Shown one piece after another: positions 2,829 through 59,344 of a stretch of 64,000 nt of DNA. Source of the DNA: an uncultured Coriobacteriaceae bacterium (GTDB lineage Bacteria; Actinomycetota; Coriobacteriia; Coriobacteriales; Coriobacteriaceae); contig OZ007031.1 in assembly GCA_963931605.1 (NCBI GenBank), forward strand, positions 913,332 through 977,331, written 5' to 3'. The stretch's first letter is position 1. Each line of letters opens with the position of its first letter. The position numbers were made by a program, and so were the translations under genes. Under the pieces are notes generated by a model that saw only the letters and a program-made list of their open reading frames with translations, did not search any database and was not told the DNA's origin.

Positions 2829-3440
2829 CGGTTGGTCGCGCTTTCGACAGCCGTCGCAGGGGCCGCGCGCTTTTCTCGGCAGGTGCGGCCGCGGTTAGCC
2901 GCGTTTCCGACGTCGCCGCAGGGGCTGCATGTTCTTCTCGGCAGGTGCGAGGGGCTCGTCAGGCCGCGCCGCCGACGCCGCCACAAAACGCCTGCTTTTC
3001 TCAGCAGACGCAAGGCGCAGTACCCATTTTCGCAACGACCCCTGATGCGGCGCGTTTTTCTCGACAGGTGCGGATCGCGCTAACCGCGTTTCCGACGTCG
3101 CCGCAGGGGCCGCGCGTTTTTCCCGGCAGGTGCGAGGGGCTCGCGGCGTTTCCCCAGGAAACGCGTTAGGGCCTGCGCGCTTTTCTCGGCAGGCGCAAAA
3201 CGGGCGCGCCTTGCGTGGGCGCGCCACCTCCCCCGCTCCCGCATCTGTCGAGAAGAACCTGCCGAGAAGGCCCCGGGACGGCTCCGCGCCCTGCGACTGC
3301 CGAGAAGAACGCGCGGGCCGGCAGCCGCCGCCCCAACCCGCTCTGCACCTGCCGAGAGGAACCCGCAGAAACCGGCTCAAAACCCTCATCCTCGCTGCAT
3401 CTGTCGAGAAAAACGTACGGTGTCGCAACCGCGGCCAAAA
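2829..3440. repeat. mirror repeat block A: six ~62-bp units carrying TTTTCTCGGCAGGTGC, then four to five ~52-bp units carrying the reverse complement
   Basis: Forward motif starts at 2871, 2932, 2996, 3055, 3117, 3181. Reverse motif starts at 3241, (3259), 3293, 3345, 3397. Confidence 0.85.
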
Positions 3441-3703: not shown

Positions 3704-5039
3704 GGGGTTATAGGACAAAAAGTGTGTATGGGCTAGTCCCAGTCCATACGGTATGGCTCGGAGCGATGCAGCTCTGACCACACTATGGCATCTCCCCACT
3801 GAGGAATGGTTCCTTGTAGCTTGTCCTGCTGATTGAGTCTCTCGTATATAGCTCTGATAGAGCCGTCCGTCGGCATGGCACGCAGGATCTCCGCTGCAGG
3901 CAAGGGGCTCGGGCTGTGCATACAGCACCACCAGAAGATCGCCTTGAGCCTGCGTTCGATAGAAAGTCCCCTATGGTCCCTGAGCATGGCTCTGAGCTGC
4001 GCGTTGGTGCCGCCTTCGATACGGTTGTTGGTGGCCGGGAGAGGGGCGAGGTGCTCTAGGCGGGGATCAAGGTAGGTGAACAGCGTCCCGGTGTTGATGA
4101 GCCGGGCGAGAGACCTCCGCGCCTTGACGAGGCGTTCATGCGCGAGGACGCACCTTCCCTCTTCCGTCTTCGTCCTCTCCGATAGGAAGTCGTCCCACCT
4201 CTCGGACCACGCAAGGAATGCCTCCGCCCACCCCTGCGCCTCTTTAAGGGTGGTGATGCCGAGCAGCGCTTTGGCAAGGCCGTACAGCTCTGCGCCCGCC
4301 TGCGTGCGGGGCTTCGAGGTGGTGTAGCGCTTGACCTGGGAGAATGCGTGGAAGATGCAGCGCTGGTGGTGCGCACGGGGCCATGTCTTCCCGAGCGCCT
4401 TCGGAAAGCCGTCGCCCCCGTCCGAGACGACCACCTCGGGGGCGGCTATGCGCTGCATCAAGGCCGACCAGCCGCGGCTGTTCTCCGCACGGCATAGGTG
4501 CCATCCCAGTACATGGCGCTCATCCGAGGCGATGAGCACGACGGCCTTTCTTCCGAGGTGTATGCCGTCAACGTAGATGACGCTTCGCGGCTCCTCTATC
4601 TTGGGCGGCATGGGCCATATATCCCAGAAGGGCGCGCACTTCCTTCTGAAGGTCCTGCCGGCCCCCGGCATATCTGATTGACGTTTGCGGGACAAAAGCC
4701 ACGCCAGGAAGGTTCTAAGGTCCTTGGCAGAGGTGTCGATCCTCCTCACCGAGCTCGAGCCGCAGCACCTACATCTGAAGCGAGTCCTGCCAGCTTTCGT
4801 TTTCCCGTTCTTAACCATATTGGAGCCGCAAACAGGGCAGCGGGGATTTCCCACGGCAACCTCGCAGATAGGCCAACTTCACTGTTAGAAACAACATGGT
4901 CTACCTGCGAGGATATGAAATTCTATACACACCTTTTGTCCAGGCAAAAGTTGGGACGATGCAACTCGAAGAGGCAATTTATAGGTATCTACCTGCAGTG
5001 ATACAGGAATCCCATACACACTTTTTGTCCTATAAGCCC
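3704..5039 (-). mobile_element. IS1249-like (IS256 superfamily) insertion sequence, ~1.34 kb
   Basis: Terminal inverted repeats GGGGTTATAGGACAAAAAGTGTGTATGGG (3704-3732) and CCCATACACACTTTTTGTCCTATAAGCCC (5011-5039) match at 28/29. They enclose a single transposase ORF. Confidence 0.85.
3733..4854 (-). CDS. IS1249-family transposase, 373 aa
   Basis: N-terminal zinc-finger CPVCGS...RFRCRCCG. The mutator/IS256-like core includes VIYVDGIHLGRK, VVSDGGDGF and HHQRCIFH. Confidence 0.88.
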   Translation of the reverse strand: MGNPRCPVCGSNMVKNGKTKAGRTRFRCRCCGSSSVRRIDTSAKDLRTFLAWLLSRKRQSDMPGAGRTFRRKCAPFWDIWPMPPKIEEPRSVIYVDGIHLGRKAVVLIASDERHVLGWHLCRAENSRGWSALMQRIAAPEVVVSDGGDGFPKALGKTWPRAHHQRCIFHAFSQVKRYTTSKPRTQAGAELYGLAKALLGITTLKEAQGWAEAFLAWSERWDDFLSERTKTEEGRCVLAHERLVKARRSLARLINTGTLFTYLDPRLEHLAPLPATNNRIEGGTNAQLRAMLRDHRGLSIERRLKAIFWWCCMHSPSPLPAAEILRAMPTDGSIRAIYERLNQQDKLQGTIPQWGDAIVWSELHRSEPYRMDWD

Positions 5040-5147: not shown

Positions 5148-5223
5148 TGGAGCCAGCAACGAGACTCGAACTCGTGACCCCCGCTTTACGAGAGCGGTGC
5201 TCTACCAACTGAGCTATGCTGGC
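5148..5223 (-). tRNA. tRNA-Thr (anticodon CGU), 76 nt with encoded CCA
   Basis: Cloverleaf folded by hand. Acceptor GCCAGCA/TGCTGGC, D arm GCTC/GAGC, anticodon stem CCGCT/AGCGG with loop CTCGTAA, T arm ACGAG/CTCGT with TTCGAGT loop. Confidence 0.9.
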
Positions 5224-5843: not shown

Positions 5844-6009
5844 GGCAACGCCTTTCGTGAAGCGGATGCGCGCGATGCGCCTTGTCGGTTCCATCATACC
5901 CGGATGCGCCGTGCGAACCAACCCGGCGCGGAGTTTGGGCGGTTCGGGTGGTGAGGGGCGGCTGTCCTGCGCTTGGATGCCAGCAGTGCGGGTAACCGCC
6001 GGGACCGGC

Positions 6010-6700
6010 GGCGCATCTGCCGAGAAAAATGCGCAGACTTTTTCAGCCGGCAATGCTTTCGCGACCAAAGGACTTTGCATCTAACGAGAAAAACGCGCGG
6101 GCTTCGTGAGTGGTGACGTTTTCGCAACCAAGCAGGGCATTCGATGTCGGAAGTGCGACCAACCGTCAGCGCCGGTAACGTACCTGCCGAGAAGAATGCG
6201 CGGGCCTCTCGGACGATGACGCTTTCGCGACCAAGCGGGACGATAGGTGTCGGAACCGCGGACAACCGAGTGAGACGAGTTCGGTTGGTCGCTGTTCCGA
6301 CATGGCCGATGTAGTTAGTCGCCCGAACCGCATCTAAATCCCGGAAATCCGGGAGTTGCGTGCGGCCCGGGCGACCAAGCGGAAGTTAGCGGTCGGATAT
6401 GCGACCAACCGGGAGCCTAGATGTCGCACTAACGGGCAAGTAGGAGCTTCGATGTCGCAACCGCGGGCAACTTATGCTTAGACGCCGGAAAGGTGACCAA
6501 CCGCCGGGGGCCACCGGTGCACCTGCCGAGAGAAATGCGCGAACTTCTCGGCCGATGACGCTTTCGCGACCAAGCGGGGCGATAGACGCCGCAAACGAGA
6601 GCAACTGCCAACGCCGGCGGCGTACCTGGCGAGAGTAATGTGCCCGCAGAGGGCGCGAGGCAGGAAGCTACCCCTCAGCCGCTGGCGCACCCGGCGAGAG
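6010..6700. repeat. repeat block B: GCAYCTGCCGAGAARAAYGCGC and GCGACCAAC/GGTTGGTCGC units around a palindromic core
   Basis: First motif starts at 6013, 6077, 6180, 6519, 6622, 6687. GCTTTCGCGACCAAGCGGG-type units lie at about 6054, 6117, 6219 and 6559. Dyad TCCCGGAAATCCGGGA is at 6339-6354. Confidence 0.8.
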
Positions 6701-7918
6701 TTACTCCTCCGCTCCACCGCCCAGCAGGCGCAGGGTGCCCATGAGGACCTGGGCCACGCGGTCGCTGGCGTCGGCGGCGCGGCGCAGAACCTCGTCGCGC
6801 GTGAGATCGGCGTCGCAGGCCCCGTGGGTCACCAGCGTGAGCCCCATGACCTCCATCCCTAACGCCCGAGCCATGATGACCTCGCACACGGCGCTCATGC
6901 CCACATACCGCGCGCCCAATGCGCGAAGCATTCCCGCCTCGGCCGGCGTCGGATAGCTCGGGCCTAGAAGCGCCGCGTACACGCCCTCGTCAAGCGCAAC
7001 GCCTGCCTCCTCGGCCGCCGCGCGCGCAAAGGCACGCAGGTACGGGGAGTACGTCTCGCCCATCGGCACAAACGGCGTGTCGACCATCGAGCCGACGGTA
7101 CGGCATGCCAGCGGGTTTCTCCCCGTGAGGTTGAGGTGGTCGGCGATAAGCCCGACGGTGCCGGGCGCAACATCCTCGTCGAGCCCGCAGGTGCCGCACG
7201 AGAAGATCACGTCGCGGCAGCCGATCCGGTGCGCGTGGCGCACGAGCGCCGTGACCTCGAGCTCGGAGAATCCCTGGTACAGATGGATGCGCCCAGGGTA
7301 CACCACCACCGGCACGCCCTCGATGGTACCAACCAGCGCCTCGAACACGTGGCCCTCAACCGGGCGCGCGTCATCGGGGAAGCCCTCGATGTCGGTATAC
7401 GGGATGCGCCGCACCACGCGCACGCACTGGGCGAGGTCGCCCATCTCGCTGCCCAGCATGATGGCAACCGGATGCTCCACGCTCGGCTCGCAATACGCTA
7501 CCTTTTCCTCGTTCACCACGGGTATCCCCTCTTTCCTGATAAGCTCGGCGGCAACGCCCCAGCCCGGCACGAGCCGGCCGGAGAACGTGCCGTCGTAGAT
7601 GCGGCCGGAGCCGCACGACGGACTCTTGGCCTTCAATATAGCAAGCCGCACGTGCGCCGCCTGGGCGCGCGCCAGGGTTTTGCGGGCACCGGTGGCAAAC
7701 GCCGCGCTAACGTCGTGCCCGGCGGCGTCCAGCACCCGCACACCTGCGCGCTCGGCCGGCGGTCGCGGGCGAGAAAGGCCGCCTGCCGTCTCGGGGCACA
7801 CGCCCACCACGCCCGCACCCAGGCGCGCAGCCAGCCTCTGCACCGCCGCGTTGGGCCGCGCCTCCCCGTCGAACCGGCAGGGCTTTCCCAGCAGGCATGC
7901 GCTTATCGCCACGTTCAT
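6701..7918 (-). CDS. fusion protein: DUF523 (TudS-like Fe-S) domain + trimeric-type purine nucleoside phosphorylase domain, 405 aa
   Basis: N-terminal half has ACLLGKPCRFDGE, GVCPE and KAKSPSCGSG (DUF523 cysteines). C-terminal half has GRIHLYQGFS, ADHLNLTG, GPSYPTPAE and MSAVCE (PunA/MTAP-like). AGGAG RBS precedes ATG 7918. Confidence 0.8.
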   Translation of the reverse strand: MNVAISACLLGKPCRFDGEARPNAAVQRLAARLGAGVVGVCPETAGGLSRPRPPAERAGVRVLDAAGHDVSAAFATGARKTLARAQAAHVRLAILKAKSPSCGSGRIYDGTFSGRLVPGWGVAAELIRKEGIPVVNEEKVAYCEPSVEHPVAIMLGSEMGDLAQCVRVVRRIPYTDIEGFPDDARPVEGHVFEALVGTIEGVPVVVYPGRIHLYQGFSELEVTALVRHAHRIGCRDVIFSCGTCGLDEDVAPGTVGLIADHLNLTGRNPLACRTVGSMVDTPFVPMGETYSPYLRAFARAAAEEAGVALDEGVYAALLGPSYPTPAEAGMLRALGARYVGMSAVCEVIMARALGMEVMGLTLVTHGACDADLTRDEVLRRAADASDRVAQVLMGTLRLLGGGAEE

Positions 7919-8074
7919 ACGCGCTCCTTCACTCGCGCGCCGCGCCGCACGTTCCCGCGCCGCGGCAGAACAAAGCGGGCGACCGCCGCAACAGCCGCCC
8001 GCCCTTCTCGCCCAAACCGTGTAAACCCAGGCAACCTGCGCACGCATGCACGCGGCGCCCCGGCCCGTGCCGCC

Positions 8075-9292
8075 TTAGATGTACACGCCGTAGATGTCGA
8101 CGTTGGCGTTGGCGTACAGGCTGTTGATGTAGTTGGCCCAGGTCTCCTGGCCCTCGCTCGCCTGGCTGGCGTACTGCTGGTAGGCCACGTAGTAGGCGGT
8201 CTGCGCCTGCGTGTACGTGGCGCCGTCGGCGTTCCACTCCTCGCCGGAGAGCGCCTGGTAGTACGGGCCGTCCTCGCTCGCCCACGTGCCGGTCTCGCTG
8301 TCCCACTCATCGCCGGCCAGGTTGATGATGTAGTCGGCGTACTTCTTGTCCACCGTCTCGTTGTTGCCGTCGGCCGGCTCCTCGGGGGCCTCGGGCGCCG
8401 TTGCGGAGGCGCCGTCGGGCACAACCTGCTCGTAGAGCTTCTGCTGGGTGCAGTTGTCGCGCACGATCTGCTTGGCCTGGTCGGTGGTCACGCCGTACTG
8501 CTCGGCCAGCGCGTCGTAATCAGAGCTGCCCAGCGCCTGCTCGGCGTAGGAGGCCATGTCGTCGTCGGAGACCTCGATGCCGCGGCTCGCCGCGTCGTCA
8601 AGCAGGATCTGCGTGCGCACGTAGCCCAGCACCGTGTCTGCCGAGGGGGCGGCGTAGGTGCCGTCGTCGTTCTTCACGTTGTCGACGCTGTACTGCGTCT
8701 CGATGGCCTGGCGCGCCGTCACGTCGTGGCGCGCGCCGTTGTAGGTGTAGGTGGCCACCACGTCGTCCAGCTGACTTTCGGAAAGCGCGGCGGTGCCGGT
8801 GCCCTTGCCGCCAAAGCCGCCGGAACCCAGCAGGTAACCGCCCACGGCAAACACCACCGCAGCGATGATCACCGCAGCAATGGCGATCGGCAGCTTCACG
8901 TTGCTCCCGCCGTTGCCCGAACCGCCCGCGCGGGCGGGGCCCTTCTCTTCGCTCATGGCCATCCCTTCGTCTGCGCTGCCTTGAACGTCCCGGTCGTCTG
9001 CGCCCGTCGAGAAGTGCGCACCCGTGTGCGCATCCTTCTCGGCCGCCGCGTCCTCGCCTTCCGCTGCCGCCCGCTCGCGCGCCAGCCGCTCGGAGGTGGC
9101 TCGGTTGAGCTGCGCCTCCTGCTCGAGCATGGCCTGGTGCGCAGCCTCGGCGTCGGCCGCAGGGTCCTTCGCGCGGCCGATAAGCTCCACCGGGTTGTCT
9201 GCCTCCGGGTCGGGGCCGGCGCCGCGCTCGATGATCTCGATGTCGCGGTCCTCCTCGTCGCGGAAGTCGTCCTTCTTAACCACAAGGCCCAT
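8075..9292 (-). CDS. membrane-anchored hypothetical protein (acidic N-terminus, one TM helix, SurA-N-like extracytoplasmic region), 405 aa
   Basis: TM segment LPIAIAAVIIAAVVFAVGGYLLG. AGGAGG RBS precedes ATG 9292. Codon bias looks coding. Function not recognised. Confidence 0.65.
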   Translation of the reverse strand: MGLVVKKDDFRDEEDRDIEIIERGAGPDPEADNPVELIGRAKDPAADAEAAHQAMLEQEAQLNRATSERLARERAAAEGEDAAAEKDAHTGAHFSTGADDRDVQGSADEGMAMSEEKGPARAGGSGNGGSNVKLPIAIAAVIIAAVVFAVGGYLLGSGGFGGKGTGTAALSESQLDDVVATYTYNGARHDVTARQAIETQYSVDNVKNDDGTYAAPSADTVLGYVRTQILLDDAASRGIEVSDDDMASYAEQALGSSDYDALAEQYGVTTDQAKQIVRDNCTQQKLYEQVVPDGASATAPEAPEEPADGNNETVDKKYADYIINLAGDEWDSETGTWASEDGPYYQALSGEEWNADGATYTQAQTAYYVAYQQYASQASEGQETWANYINSLYANANVDIYGVYI

Positions 9293-16106: not shown

Positions 16107-16544
16107 GGAGCCTCCCCCTCGTTGCAAGCTATATGGTTCCCCCCAGCTGACCTGGTCTTTGCCCCCACACTTGCGCACCGGGGCGTTTGCTCGGGCCGCC
16201 GCGGCGGCCTTCACGACTAACCCGCTCGCCCGCGGGGCAACGTGCCCCAGAGGTGGTATACGGACGGTGCGACTTACTCCTAGGACGCGCCATGATCGCG
16301 CGGCGCGCACGCCGTCGCTTACGTGGACCCTTTCGGCCGCGTCTGCCTTGGGATTGAACAGGCCTCGCGCAAGGGAGCGCGCCAACGGGCACCGTACCCG
16401 CGTGCGTGCGTCTTGCACCTATTCGCAACCACAGACCTGGGAGGAACGTGCGGCAGTATAACAAGAAGAAGCCTAACCGTAAACCTGAACTTGAATGTTT
16501 TGGACAAACGAACAGAGAGGCCGCGTCAGCCGACATGCCGACGC

Positions 16545-20009: not shown

Positions 20010-20430
20010 GGCGCGCGCCTGCCGGTTGCCCGCGGAAACTACGACCAGGGCAGGCGGCTCCTTCGGTTGCCCGCGGAAAAGTCGCGCAAGCTTTTGGTCG
20101 GTTGCGAGAACATCGATCAGGCCCTCGGCTGGTCGCGAAAATGACGGCTAGAGCCGGTGGTCCCCCTTCGGCTGGTCGCGGAAGCGTCGTGCAGAACTTT
20201 GGTTGGTCGCCGTTTCGACATTGCCGGAACAGTTAGTCGCTCCCACGACAGCTAACTCCCAGAAATCCGGGAGTTGCATGCAGCCCGAACGACCAAACGG
20301 GATTTACCTGCGATTATCGCGATCAACCGGAGGCCTCGATGCCGTTAGCGCAACCAACTGGAGCTTGCGCGCCACCATCGCGGCCAACCGCAGCGCGAAC
20401 ACCGTTAGCGCGGCAAGCGCGAGCTGAATC
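20010..20430. repeat. mirror repeat block D between response-regulator and kinase genes: GGTTGGTCGC-type units, dyad core, then GCGACCAAC-type units
   Basis: Left units lie at about 20022, 20063, 20094, 20127, 20169, 20200, 20230. The dyad CTCCCAGAAATCCGGGAG is at 20255-20272. Right units lie at about 20285, 20315, 20344, 20367. Confidence 0.8.
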
Positions 20431-20436
20431 TCCGCC

Positions 20437-27139: not shown

Positions 27140-27265
27140 CGCGAGCCCGCAGATGGAGAGGCGATCCGACTTGTTCCGCAGCGCACCGCGGAAGTTACGG
27201 TTACTGGTATAGCCGGGGACTTGCACCCCGATTCCCCTGAGCAGCCGCCGGCTCCCCGGCCGCGC
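27140..27265 (-). promoter_or_regulatory. probable cobalamin (B12) riboswitch aptamer in the leader of the DUF4430-ecfT-ecfAA'S operon
   Basis: The minus strand reads AGGGGAATCGGGGTGCAAGTCCCCGGCTATACCAGTAACCGTAA...CCGCGGTGCGCTGCGG..AAGTCGGATCGCCTCTCC. This parallels the GGGAA-GGTG-AA-TCC / CCNGNAACNGTAA core and B12-box of RF00174 as I remember them. No covariance model was run. Confidence 0.6.
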
Positions 27266-55469: not shown

Positions 55470-56873
<1,404 letters not shown>

Positions 56874-56900
56874 CCGCCGCGCCAAGCGCTGCCGCACCGC

Positions 56901-56936
56901 AAGCCCCGCGGGCCCCACGGCTCGCGGGGCTTTCTG
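56901..56936 (+). terminator. hairpin terminator after asnS
   Basis: AAGCCCCGCG-ggccccacggct-CGCGGGGCTT followed by TCT, 28 nt after the stop. Confidence 0.65.
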
Positions 56937-57190
56937 CATCGCAGCCAAACCGCGGCGCCCGCCCGGTCCGCGCGGCGCGGGCGCTGCGCAGGCCCCCGCG
57001 CCGCTCCCCAACACCCGACCGGCGCACGCCGCCACACACGCAAACGCACGCCGCCGCACACGCAAAACATCTTGCAAATTGTCAGGTTAACCACCCTTGT
57101 TGCGACCACGCCCCGCCAGCCAACGTGGTACAAAGAAACCATGTGCAAACAAGTTGTCCGCAACGCATCGCCGTTGGAAACGGAGGCACC

Positions 57191-59344
57191 GTGATCACGC
57201 GTTACCGCTTTGGCACCCCCATCGAAACCGACACCGTCCCGCGCAAGCCGGACCCCGCCACGGGCCCCGTGCGCCACCTCGCCGTCCATCTGCCCGGCGA
57301 GCCCGTAACAGCGTCGGAACAAGAAAAACCCGGCGGCGAGGCCGTCAACCCCAGCCGCGGCGAGGCCGGCCCCGCCGCAAACAAGCAGGCCGACAAGCTC
57401 TTCTTCACCTGTCCCCTGCGCGAGGCCGACATCGTCTACGGCCTCGGCGAGCAGATGGGCGGCATCAACAAGCGCAACGCCGTCTACACCTCCCGCTGCA
57501 TGGACAACGACCTGCACACCGAGGATCGGCGCAGCCTGTACTCGGCGCACAACTTCCTCGTGGTGCACGACACGGCGCGCGGCGGGCGCACCTTCGGCGC
57601 CTTCGTCGACTGCGCCGGCATCGTCACCTTCGACGTGGGCGAGACCCGCCGCGACGAGCTCGTCATAACCCTCGACGACCCTGACGCCGACCTCTACCTC
57701 ATCGAGGGCGCCGACCCTGCCGACGTGGTGCGCCAGTTCCGCCAGCTCATCGGCCAAAGCTACATCCCGCCCAAGTGGGCCTTCGGCTACCAGCAGAGCC
57801 GCTGGGGCTACCGCACCGAGGAGGACTTCCGAGACGTTGCCGAGCGCTACCGCACCGCGCGCATCCCGCTCGACGCCCTGTACATGGACATCGACTACAT
57901 GGACGACTACGAGAGCTTCACCGTAAGCCCCGAGCGCTTCCCCCACTTCGACCAGCTCGTAAGCGAGATGCGCGCGCAGGGCGTCCACCTCGTGCCCATC
58001 ATCGACGCCGGCATCAAGGTCAAGCCCGGCTACCGCGTCTACGACGAGGGCGTCGCCCAAAACCGCTTCTGCAAAGACGAGAAAGGCGAGGACTTCGTCT
58101 GCGGCGTGTGGCCGGGGCACTGCCACTTCGTCGACGTGCTCGACCCCGACAACCGCCGGTGGTTCGGCAAGCAGTACCGGGCGCTTCTCGACCGCGGCAT
58201 CGACGGCTTCTGGAACGACATGAACGAGCCGTCCATCTTCTACACGGAGGAGCGCCTCGCCGAGGCGTATGCCCTGGTTGACGAGCTGCGGAACGGCGAG
58301 CTCGACCTCACCACCTACTTCGCCATGAAGGACGCCTTCGGCGCGCTCTCCAACAACCCCGCCGACTACCGCCTCTTCTACCACACCGTGAACGGGCGGC
58401 GGGTGCGGCACGACAAGGTGCACAACCTCTACGGCTACAACCTCTCGCGCGCCGCCGGCGAGGCCTTCGAGCGCCTCTCGCCCGACAAGCGCATCCTGCT
58501 GTTCTCGCGCTCCTCGATGATCGGCATGCACCGCGTAAGCGGCATCTGGACCGGCGACAACATGGCGTGGTGGTCGCACCTTCGGCTCGCGGTGTGCCAG
58601 ATGCCCAACATCCAGATGTGCGGGTTCCTCTACACCGGCTCCGACCTGGGCGGCTTCGGCTCCGACACCGACGAGGAGCTCATGGTACGTTGGCTCGAGT
58701 TCGCCGCGTTCGTGCCGCTCATGCGCAACCACTCCGCCAGCCCGCGCGCCCAGGAGCTCGACTGCTTCACGTGCACCGACACCATGCGCCGCATCGTCGA
58801 GCTGCGCTACGCGCTCATCCCCTACCTGTACAGCGAGTTCGTGAAAGCTGCGCTGGCTGGCGACCTGTACTTCAAGCCGCTCTCCTTCGTCTACGGCGAC
58901 AACGGCCGCACAGAACGCGTGGAAGACCAGCTCATGGTGGGCGAGTCGGTCATGATCGCCCCGGTGGTCGAGAAGAACGCGCGCGGACGTTACGTATACC
59001 TGCCCGAGCCCATGCGCATGGTGCGCTTCCGGGCGCTTGACGACTACGACGTAGCCGATCTCGCCGCCGGCGACCACTGGGTTGACCTGGCGCTTAACGA
59101 GCTCGCGATCTTCATCCGTCCCGGCCACCTGGTGCCGCTGGCCCAGCCGGCGCAGACCACGCGCGACATGGACTTCACCCACCTGCGCGTGCTTGCCAAC
59201 GTGGGCGCAGGCGAGACGGCCGCCTACACCCTTTACGACGACGACGGCTATACCCGCGCGATCGACGTGCGCGAGCATTTCCACACCGTCACGGTGGAAA
59301 ACGGCGCCGCAAGCTGCCCCACCAAGCACATGGAGCTCTTCTAA
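57191..59344 (+). CDS. glycoside hydrolase family 31 (alpha-glucosidase/alpha-xylosidase-like), 717 aa
   Basis: Motifs GYQQSRWGY, LYMDIDYM and GFWNDMNEP (nucleophile region). GTG 57191 with GGAGG 4 nt upstream is preferred over the track start at 57125. Confidence 0.88.
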   Translation: MITRYRFGTPIETDTVPRKPDPATGPVRHLAVHLPGEPVTASEQEKPGGEAVNPSRGEAGPAANKQADKLFFTCPLREADIVYGLGEQMGGINKRNAVYTSRCMDNDLHTEDRRSLYSAHNFLVVHDTARGGRTFGAFVDCAGIVTFDVGETRRDELVITLDDPDADLYLIEGADPADVVRQFRQLIGQSYIPPKWAFGYQQSRWGYRTEEDFRDVAERYRTARIPLDALYMDIDYMDDYESFTVSPERFPHFDQLVSEMRAQGVHLVPIIDAGIKVKPGYRVYDEGVAQNRFCKDEKGEDFVCGVWPGHCHFVDVLDPDNRRWFGKQYRALLDRGIDGFWNDMNEPSIFYTEERLAEAYALVDELRNGELDLTTYFAMKDAFGALSNNPADYRLFYHTVNGRRVRHDKVHNLYGYNLSRAAGEAFERLSPDKRILLFSRSSMIGMHRVSGIWTGDNMAWWSHLRLAVCQMPNIQMCGFLYTGSDLGGFGSDTDEELMVRWLEFAAFVPLMRNHSASPRAQELDCFTCTDTMRRIVELRYALIPYLYSEFVKAALAGDLYFKPLSFVYGDNGRTERVEDQLMVGESVMIAPVVEKNARGRYVYLPEPMRMVRFRALDDYDVADLAAGDHWVDLALNELAIFIRPGHLVPLAQPAQTTRDMDFTHLRVLANVGAGETAAYTLYDDDGYTRAIDVREHFHTVTVENGAASCPTKHMELF

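Follow-up and report, generated by a model that had tools for sequence, protein, structure and literature searches.

Two blocks of short mirror-image repeats, designated B and D, lie within the 64,000-nucleotide stretch analysed here (hereafter the window; contig OZ007031.1 of assembly GCA_963931605.1, positions 913,332 to 977,331, from an uncultured Coriobacteriaceae bacterium), and the question raised by this locus is what the core of about 70 nt is that both blocks contain. An initial annotation of the window had offered four readings, i.e., an origin-like centre, a recombination-like centre, a binding site for a dimeric protein, and the middle of a MITE (a miniature inverted-repeat transposable element) whose arms were expanded by tandem duplication. 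The core is the tail-to-tail junction (hereafter the hinge) of two opposed arrays of short units and no separate module. The family to which it belongs looks like lineage-specific selfish mobile DNA, not like an origin, an RNA gene or a gene switch. It is probably a non-autonomous, foldback-type mobile repeat, with the hinge and the phased, conserved boxes of the arms as predicted recognition sites for a protein.

Hinge and arms of the repeat family

The cores of block B (69 nt) and block D (70 nt) were identical at 56 of 69 positions without gaps, which confirms the conserved core noticed in the initial annotation. Both sequences were present as quoted there, whereas the ranges given for them (6314-6381 and 20231-20300) were one base off (see Table 1). 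The 31-nt conserved segment occurred exactly twice in the window, compared with 0.00 occurrences expected from 100 shuffles. The dyad had been described as perfect, which holds for copy B (TCCCGG-AAAT-CCGGGA, six perfect pairs); copy D, however, has one mismatch (TCCCAG/CCGGGA), and pairing over the 99-nt element amounts to 66%. The family consensus of the dyad is CTCCCGG-AAAT-CCGGGAG.

The genome (G000) is a single contig of 2,392,411 bp with a G+C content of 66%, on which genes were called by a crude, GC3-based procedure. Its closest named relatives are members of Collinsella, to whose response regulators the one adjoining block D is 77-78% identical. An nhmmer profile derived from the two cores detected at least 64 distinct hinge loci in this genome, and a 99-nt model (alignment A1, model R1) recovered hinge loci with scores of up to 85 bits. 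The core 20-mer, with up to 3 mismatches allowed, occurred 42 times in G000 and 0 times in a reversed control. Blocks bearing the repeats number 83 and total 17.8 kb.

The arms are built from units of approximately 30.5 bp of the form GGTTGGTCGC-N5-CGACAT-CTAAG (more loosely, the head GGTTRNNCGC, 5 nt and CG.CA(T)CTAA). A unit profile with the consensus CGGTTGGTCGC-GGTTT-CGACAT-CTAAG-GAGC yielded 385 units in G000 compared with 3 in the reversed genome. Each arm comprises 1-6 units, all of them directed toward the hinge (>>>hinge<<<); units were found on both sides in 56 of the 64 copies and on one side only in 8. The flip in orientation claimed for B and D holds for both blocks and was also seen in the 56 genomic copies with units on both sides, and correctly oriented units adjoined the hinge at all 64 loci. 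Genome-wide, 69 convergent unit junctions were found, 60 with a called core and 9 with a degenerate one. The innermost-unit consensus is GGTTGGTCGCTC..ACG.CA.CTAA.TCCCG, and the outer-unit consensus is GGTTG.TCGC..TT.CGACATCTAA. Each innermost unit thus forms one half of the core, which makes the core a hinge between the arrays and not an unrelated module.

The most common unit spacing is 30-31 bp (111 cases), and unit heads lie approximately 34, 64, 95 and 125 bp from the hinge centre on both sides. When all copies were stacked, conservation extended beyond the 69 nt, with GGTTGGTCGC heads every ~31 bp leftward and their complements rightward. The median detected span of an element is 188 bp; the two arm lengths of one element are uncorrelated (rho 0.12) and show no polarity. 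Columns 37:62 and 32:67 hold conserved mismatches, which give the hinge a slight asymmetry, and the closest copies always match each other in the same orientation.

None of the 64 hinge loci overlaps a called gene. Regarding the arrangement of the neighbouring genes (tandem, convergent and divergent contexts), the spacers that carry a core are split 24/17/14/9, which mirrors the proportions found for all spacers (389/339/180/173); nine of the copies have divergent gene starts on their two sides. Among the 41 copies between genes of the same strand, 16 are co-oriented with these genes, i.e., hinge orientation is independent of gene direction. Neither a gene context nor a strand nor a replichore was favoured among the 64 loci.

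Distribution, copying and variation

A total of 40 genomes from 22 genera, drawn from related genera, related families and the same order, were compared. Model R1 gave no match in 39 of them; the sole other genome with matches was that of the congener G003, with three loci. The unit pattern occurred 134 times in G000 and 0-8 times elsewhere, which is background. The core is not limited to two loci, but the conservation in relatives that had been expected of it is absent. Exact core patterns had no match outside the lineage in plasmid and phage collections, IMG/VR, JGI metagenomes and GTDB species genomes. The three loci of G003 sit in kilobase segments 98-100% identical to G000 (C6:~55600-57521, C4:73045-76064 and C23:~6000-9000), compared with an identity of 67-96% for the G003 sequences flanking 14 other blocks. 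Given the near-identity, these three copies are recent imports or belong to mis-binned contigs, which makes them uninformative on selection. In one of the segments the identity shifts sharply, from approximately 88% to 100%; such segments point to recent gene flow between the two species, or to chimeric or mis-binned contigs.

In all eight blocks for which both flanks could be placed, the orthologous spacer of G003 is 224-802 bp shorter than that of G000, and genomes G001 and G002 agree in lacking the block wherever this could be assessed. The spacer lengths in G003 and G000, respectively (blocks named by their start in G000), are 196 and 420 bp at block 30190, 200 and 578 bp at 458098, ~215 and 752 bp at 659300, 99 and 901 bp at 791311, 109 and 549 bp at block D (933532), ~225 and 982 bp at 1811573, ~291 and 612 bp at 1854168, and 285 and 553 bp at 2350931. 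Both flanks of block 791311 are contiguous in G001 and G002. Block D represents a clean surplus of ~423 bp relative to G003, which ends exactly at the stop codon of the regulator gene.

Regarding the relationships among the hinge copies, the mean identity was 60% over 99 nt, whereas the best pair reached 89%. The closest pairs were 82-89% identical in the hinge, and their homology extended over 162-351 bp, covering several units on both sides, which indicates that whole elements have been copied; in one close pair the homology begins exactly at a GGTTGGTCGC head. The hinge alignment contains 47 of 99 columns conserved in at least 80% of the copies, standing beside near-random columns, including outside the detection model. 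Among 12 independent close pairs, differences amounted to 0.106 per conserved column versus 0.309 per variable column; in the top four pairs, 15 of 188 conserved positions differed compared with 46 of 208 variable ones (p = 9e-5).

Two modes of arm growth were rejected. If single 31-bp units had been duplicated in tandem in the recent past, neighbouring units should be unusually alike, but their similarity (56%) showed no excess over that between units of different blocks (55%). Symmetric growth, whether through nested insertions into the hinge or through copying templated by a hairpin, is contradicted by the mirror units (54% vs 55%) and by the uncorrelated arm lengths. As neighbouring, mirror and different-block units are equally alike, recent unit-by-unit tandem copying and symmetric growth are both ruled out. 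Larger duplications, of 85-165 bp, do occur, as do indels among strains.

Variation within the species was assessed on a small sample of 22 further contigs covering six loci, which were found by exact protein match. Block D had the same 527-bp spacer in eight strain contigs, with 0-2 single-nucleotide polymorphisms (SNPs). The outer left array of block B carried, in one other strain, a deletion of 64 bp as well as a divergent patch, the hinge and the right arm being nearly identical. The left arm of the element between prfA and prmC had lost 72 and 61 bp in one strain, with the hinge retained, and a 42-bp deletion was found at the rubrerythrin locus; overall, the arm indels among strains measured 42-133 bp and left the hinge in place. 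The genes prfA and prmC, which are usually adjacent, are parted in G000 by a 1.15-kb spacer full of repeat elements (C1:2041999-2043147), which is ~137 bp shorter in one strain.

Segregating sites made up 3.2% of other spacer DNA and 1.7% of coding DNA. Within the units they made up 6.6% of the variable positions (33/498) and 2.3% of the conserved ones (7/308), and within the hinge 1.9% of the variable columns (6/312) and 3.5% of the conserved ones (10/282). For the repeats as a whole (4.0%), no difference to other spacer DNA was seen (p = 0.19), whereas they exceeded coding DNA (p = 1e-7); pooled over the six loci, conserved and variable positions compared as 17/590 versus 39/810 (p = 0.07). 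Since the SNP density of the repeats is like that of other spacer DNA, inserted copies drift roughly in the manner of neutral spacer DNA. A strongly selected host function at each locus is not supported.

Propagation and alternative explanations

Boxes that are conserved across the family while the copies seem to drift neutrally in place are most simply read as being needed for propagation. The family would thus have spread in its lineage through the copying of whole elements, and hinge and boxes, the latter recurring every three helical turns, would be kept family-wide because propagation needs them. Lineages of source copies would retain the boxes, as non-autonomous elements retain the sites of their mobiliser, and the spacers between the boxes would change freely. 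After insertion, unequal recombination between units, or slippage, would lengthen and shorten the arms. The mirror symmetry and the three-turn phase, together with the absence of folding signals, make double-stranded DNA bound by a symmetric protein the most likely recognised form; a putative symmetric, sequence-specific protein would act in trans on the hinge and boxes. As far as the sequences go, the dimeric-site reading of the initial annotation agrees with the symmetry, with conservation in boxes and with the absence of pairing covariation.

The folding signals bear directly on the view that hinge and arms act as RNA, either as a REP-like 3'-end hairpin (REP, repetitive extragenic palindromic sequence) that stabilises or terminates transcripts or as a small RNA gene. 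Such a role would suit copy B, which as DNA can form a long hairpin (-25 kcal/mol, z -3.6/-3.8), and the many copies between same-strand genes, which would be co-transcribed. Copy D, however, folds at its apex only (z -1.6/-1.9), and across the 99-nt palindrome 65.9% of positions pair compared with 67.7 +/- 0.5% after the copies' 3' partners had been shuffled (slid pairing controls: 32-38%), so the symmetry is a property of the family consensus which is not maintained within copies. Mismatches of the G·T type (222) are no more common than A·C (229), and neither strand is therefore favoured for folding. RNAalifold returned no consensus pairs; Rfam gave no match of hinge or arms at the gathering score or at E <= 1, and scans for promoters and terminators revealed no promoter-like site and no terminator-like T-tract. 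Less than half of the copies between same-strand genes are co-oriented with these genes, and others lie between divergent gene starts. An RNA or single-strand hairpin role was rejected on the pairing and mismatch results, and the RNA reading is very improbable. The same absence of pairing covariation, of wobble strand bias and of replichore or orientation bias counts against a family of the REPIN/BIME type (REPIN, inverted REP doublet; BIME, bacterial interspersed mosaic element) that is moved as single-stranded hairpins by the genome's Y1 (HUH) transposase recognising GGTTGG-headed units. The genome does contain a single gene like a REP-associated tyrosine transposase (RAYT), at C1:698382-699194, outside the window (L023 1057-1869, minus strand; PF01797, 53.8 bits), and the hinge is an inverted doublet as in REPINs (PMC3337134); the sole link of the gene to the hinge family is the head GGTTGGT, the seven bases with which both the RAYT-flanking repeat GGTTGGTTGGGGACGTG and GGTTGGTCGC open. 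The score against NF047646 (72.7 bits), however, is below the cut-off of 80, the units are neither palindromes nor endowed with an internal stem, and the gene is flanked on both sides by a different hairpin repeat, GGTTSGTTGGGGACGTG, with ~19-25 copies in G000. The closest RAYT orthologues, which belong to other genera (those of G012 and G014, two other genera of the bacterial family, are each 72% identical), are likewise flanked by GGTTSGTTGGGGACGTG; this repeat has 87 copies in G012, 72 in G014 and 15 in G016, and no hinge or units were found in these three genomes. By its flanks and its co-distribution the RAYT thus belongs to the GGTTSGTTGGGGACGTG repeat, which looks like a classical REP-RAYT pairing in Coriobacteriaceae, and is not supported as mobiliser of the hinge family, which is left without a known partner; transposition of the family by this enzyme appears rather improbable.

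Domestication would offer another account, in which a host protein on boxes and hinge serves arm bridging, insulation or nucleoid organisation under purifying selection at each locus. The mirror-symmetric boxes at 30-31 bp, i.e., about three helical turns, and their box-like conservation fit such a role, as do the lower polymorphism of conserved unit positions (chi-square p ~0.006) and the constant length of block D in eight strain contigs. The conserved hinge columns, however, are unprotected (in the most divergent strain, 7/46 versus 5/44), SNPs are overall as dense as in other spacer DNA and denser than in coding DNA, unit number varies among strains, congeners lack arrays at the same loci, and the distribution follows the available spacer types without a preferred gene context; this reading is regarded as improbable. 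The two centre-type readings fared worst. A crossover site with accessory arm sites would recall, in outline, an attP- or res-type architecture with its core dyad and reiterated arm sites, and one copy lies in the spacer between dnaA and dnaN, where actinobacterial origins are usually found (a 911-bp spacer at C1:1735884-1736794, with the hinge at 1736245-1736313). That copy is one of 64 dispersed ones without a replichore pattern, though, and its spacer contains a single DnaA-box-like 9-mer, whereas few sites and clustered DnaA boxes are the features of a replication origin. Regarding recombination, no recombinase gene adjoins the copies, the facing arrays examined enclose ordinary genes only, and in the 22 strain contigs compared at six loci no hinge marks the end of an inversion, deletion or other rearrangement; a recombination or replication centre is thus scarcely credible. 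A further reading sees the scaffold of an undescribed bacterial system, with a symmetric protein on CTCCCGG-AAAT-CCGGGAG that would bind cooperatively along the three-turn boxes of both arms, either in a foldback transposition of a type not known from bacteria and defined by the centre instead of the ends, or as a new class of chromosome-architecture element; this is conceivable, although unlikely.

The mobile foldback repeat remains the favoured explanation, and of the four readings offered initially the MITE one fits best. The elements are dispersed, species-specific and strictly intergenic, congener sites lack them, whole elements have been copied and the arms vary in length; neither a target-site duplication nor a parent insertion sequence (IS) with matching ends was found, however. 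Several observations weigh against this explanation. Identical copies are lacking, so that the family may be an extinct one; neighbouring units carry no signal of recent tandem duplication, no mobilising enzyme was found, and no presence/absence polymorphism of a whole element was observed among the strains at the six loci. A target-site duplication was not evident at block D, the sole clean junction (the other orthologous spacers are too diverged to be read for one). The polymorphism is mixed, in that conserved positions vary less in the units and not in the hinge, and it is the symmetry, the phasing and the absent folding signals from which protein binding is predicted.

Other mobile DNA was examined for a parent of the family. 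An IS256-family (Transposase_mut) element of low G+C content occupies window positions 3711-5035, has inverted ends (ATAGGACAAAAAGTGTGTATGGG and its complement) and adjoins a tRNA-Thr gene (5148-5223). An IS481-family element is present in eight copies of 99.7-100% identity, plus one at 85%, with CTAG duplications; its sites include C1:21850-22928, C1:2215659-2216738 and six others, and two copies lie inside foldback arms. The ends of both elements are unrelated to the hinge family, and both were rejected as parent IS. No transposase-like gene was recognised by eye, without a Pfam scan, between paired or facing arrays; one candidate interval between facing arrays encodes phosphoenolpyruvate carboxykinase and a DUF559-like protein, the latter likewise read by eye. 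Another palindromic repeat family (GGGAGATAAGGTTCCGG...CCGGGTTCTTATCTCCC and relatives) occurs at C1:2042780-2042840 and also at L021 1200-1260, and the hairpin repeat ACGAAATGCGCCAAATTAGGCnnGGCCTAATTTGGCGCA adjoins several arrays (C1:~797200, ~797500, ~1602790, ~1603050 and ~2014900).

The features of blocks B and D are summarized in Table 1. The neighbouring array and element B meet head to head at 6267/6283. Weaker GGTTGCCCGC/GGCTGGTCGC heads were seen on the left side of D at 20024, 20065 and 20170, and further weaker heads on its right near 20380 and 20411. In block A (window 2829-3440) and in the outer parts of block B (6004-6210 and 6510-6640), double units of ~62 bp result from the alternation of GGTTGGTCGC units with a second motif, ACCTGCCGAGAAnAATGCGCG (complement CGCGCATTnTTCTCGGCAGGT). 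Elsewhere on the minus strand of the window, Rfam detected a raiA RNA (16138-16445, 127 bits) and an AdoCbl-II riboswitch (27159-27238, 37.3 bits, barely above threshold).

Table 1. Coordinates of hinges, arms and adjoining arrays of blocks B and D in the window
Feature	Position	Strand	Remarks
Hinge (core) of element B	6314..6382	+	two half-units tail to tail around CCCGG-AAAT-CCGGG; highest nhmmer score in the family, 70.9 bits
99-nt hinge region of B, including CGACAT...ATGTCG-type flanks	6299..6397	+	alignment A1/model R1, 83.9 bits
Rightward unit GGTTGGTCGC-TGTTC-CGACAT..., immediately left of hinge B	6283..6313	+	unit hidden Markov model (HMM), 17.4 bits
Right arm of B, leftward units 6380-6410, 6442-6472, 6472-6502, 6545-6575	6380..6575	-	unit HMM; nearly invariant among strains
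Neighbouring array, leftward units 6134-6164, 6206-6236, 6237-6267	6134..6267	-	variable among strains
Hinge (core) of element D	20232..20301	+	nhmmer, 69.1 bits
99-nt hinge region of D	20216..20314	+	model R1, 81.2 bits; fold limited to the apical stem
Left arm of D, rightward units 20127-20157, 20201-20231	20127..20231	+	unit HMM
Right arm of D, leftward units 20298-20328, 20329-20359	20298..20359	-	unit HMM
Whole block D	20015..20436	.	~423 bp missing from the orthologous regulator-kinase spacer of congener G003

Comparison with known repeat systems

Well-described cases of dispersed intergenic repeats come from Proteobacteria and a few Firmicutes; no paper was found that contains the present motifs or describes such repeats in Coriobacteriia or gut Coriobacteriaceae. 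The present analysis adds that the hinge is the part which defines the family, the grammar across the genome, the restriction to one species and the separation from the RAYT system. The grammar is clear and unusual, in that phased units form two arrays facing each other across a single conserved hinge, and the family has gone from none to ~65 copies in one species-level lineage without a visibly associated transposase. It accounts for several other mirror-repeat blocks of the window. Its elements inflate spacers within operon-like pairs (regulator-kinase, prfA-prmC and dnaA-dnaN), and the differences in arm length could act as strain markers. If a mobiliser or binding protein were found, it would show foldback-type spread in a bacterium and why the centre and not the ends is conserved; if the reading as a novel scaffold were true, the system would be distinct from REP/BIME, MITEs and mycobacterial interspersed repetitive units (MIRUs).

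REPINs are inverted doublets of REP sequences (PMC3337134). With the REPIN/REP-RAYT systems of Pseudomonas and Enterobacteria (PMC3116915, PMC3337134) the family shares dozens of short, intergenic, non-coding palindromic elements, an inverted doublet around a spacer, a lineage-specific population and a single-copy Y1 transposase in the genome. In contrast to the single REP of 20-25 bp in a REPIN, however, each arm of the hinge family holds 1-6 non-palindromic units of 30.5 bp; pairing is not maintained, and it is another repeat that flanks the RAYT and shares its distribution. REPIN populations contain a master sequence with identical or near-identical copies, whereas here the best pair is 89% and the mean 60% identical. 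The BIMEs of E. coli are likewise intergenic mosaics in which short motifs are clustered and reiterated in varying copy number. The REPs of a BIME alternate in orientation along the cluster, whereas the units of one arm of the hinge family are co-directed, with a single flip at the conserved hinge.

Like MITEs such as Correia, ERIC/RU-1 and MITEAba12 (PMC3184786, PMC6382973), the elements are non-autonomous, intergenic, palindromic overall and absent from the orthologous sites of relatives. Presence or absence at orthologous sites, as is typical of MITEs, was observed between species, whereas within the species only arm lengths differed. Unlike MITEs with terminal inverted repeats, the hinge family is best conserved at its centre and has mostly ragged ends; the outermost units do carry inverted GGTTGGTCGC heads, yet these heads are reiterated internally, and neither a parent IS with matching ends nor a target-site duplication at the one clean junction was found. 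The number of intergenic units of ~30-60 bp differs among strains as it does for MIRUs and other repeats of the variable-number tandem repeat (VNTR) type. MIRUs, however, are direct tandem arrays without hinge or mirror symmetry, whereas two opposed arms always flank one hinge in the hinge family. The BOX elements of Streptococcus pneumoniae are also modular and dispersed, with a variable number of an internal module. They read boxA-(boxB)n-boxC in one direction, with A and C forming the fold, and have neither mirror arrays nor a hinge dyad.

Foldback transposons of the FB/Galileo type are eukaryotic and of kilobase scale, and some of their copies carry a transposase. As an analogy of design only, they share with the hinge family long inverted arms of subrepeats, a short middle piece and a variable arm length, whereas the hinge elements are bacterial, measure ~130-650 bp and have no coding copy among those found. 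In its function the family most resembles REPINs/BIMEs and MITEs, and in its design the eukaryotic foldback elements.

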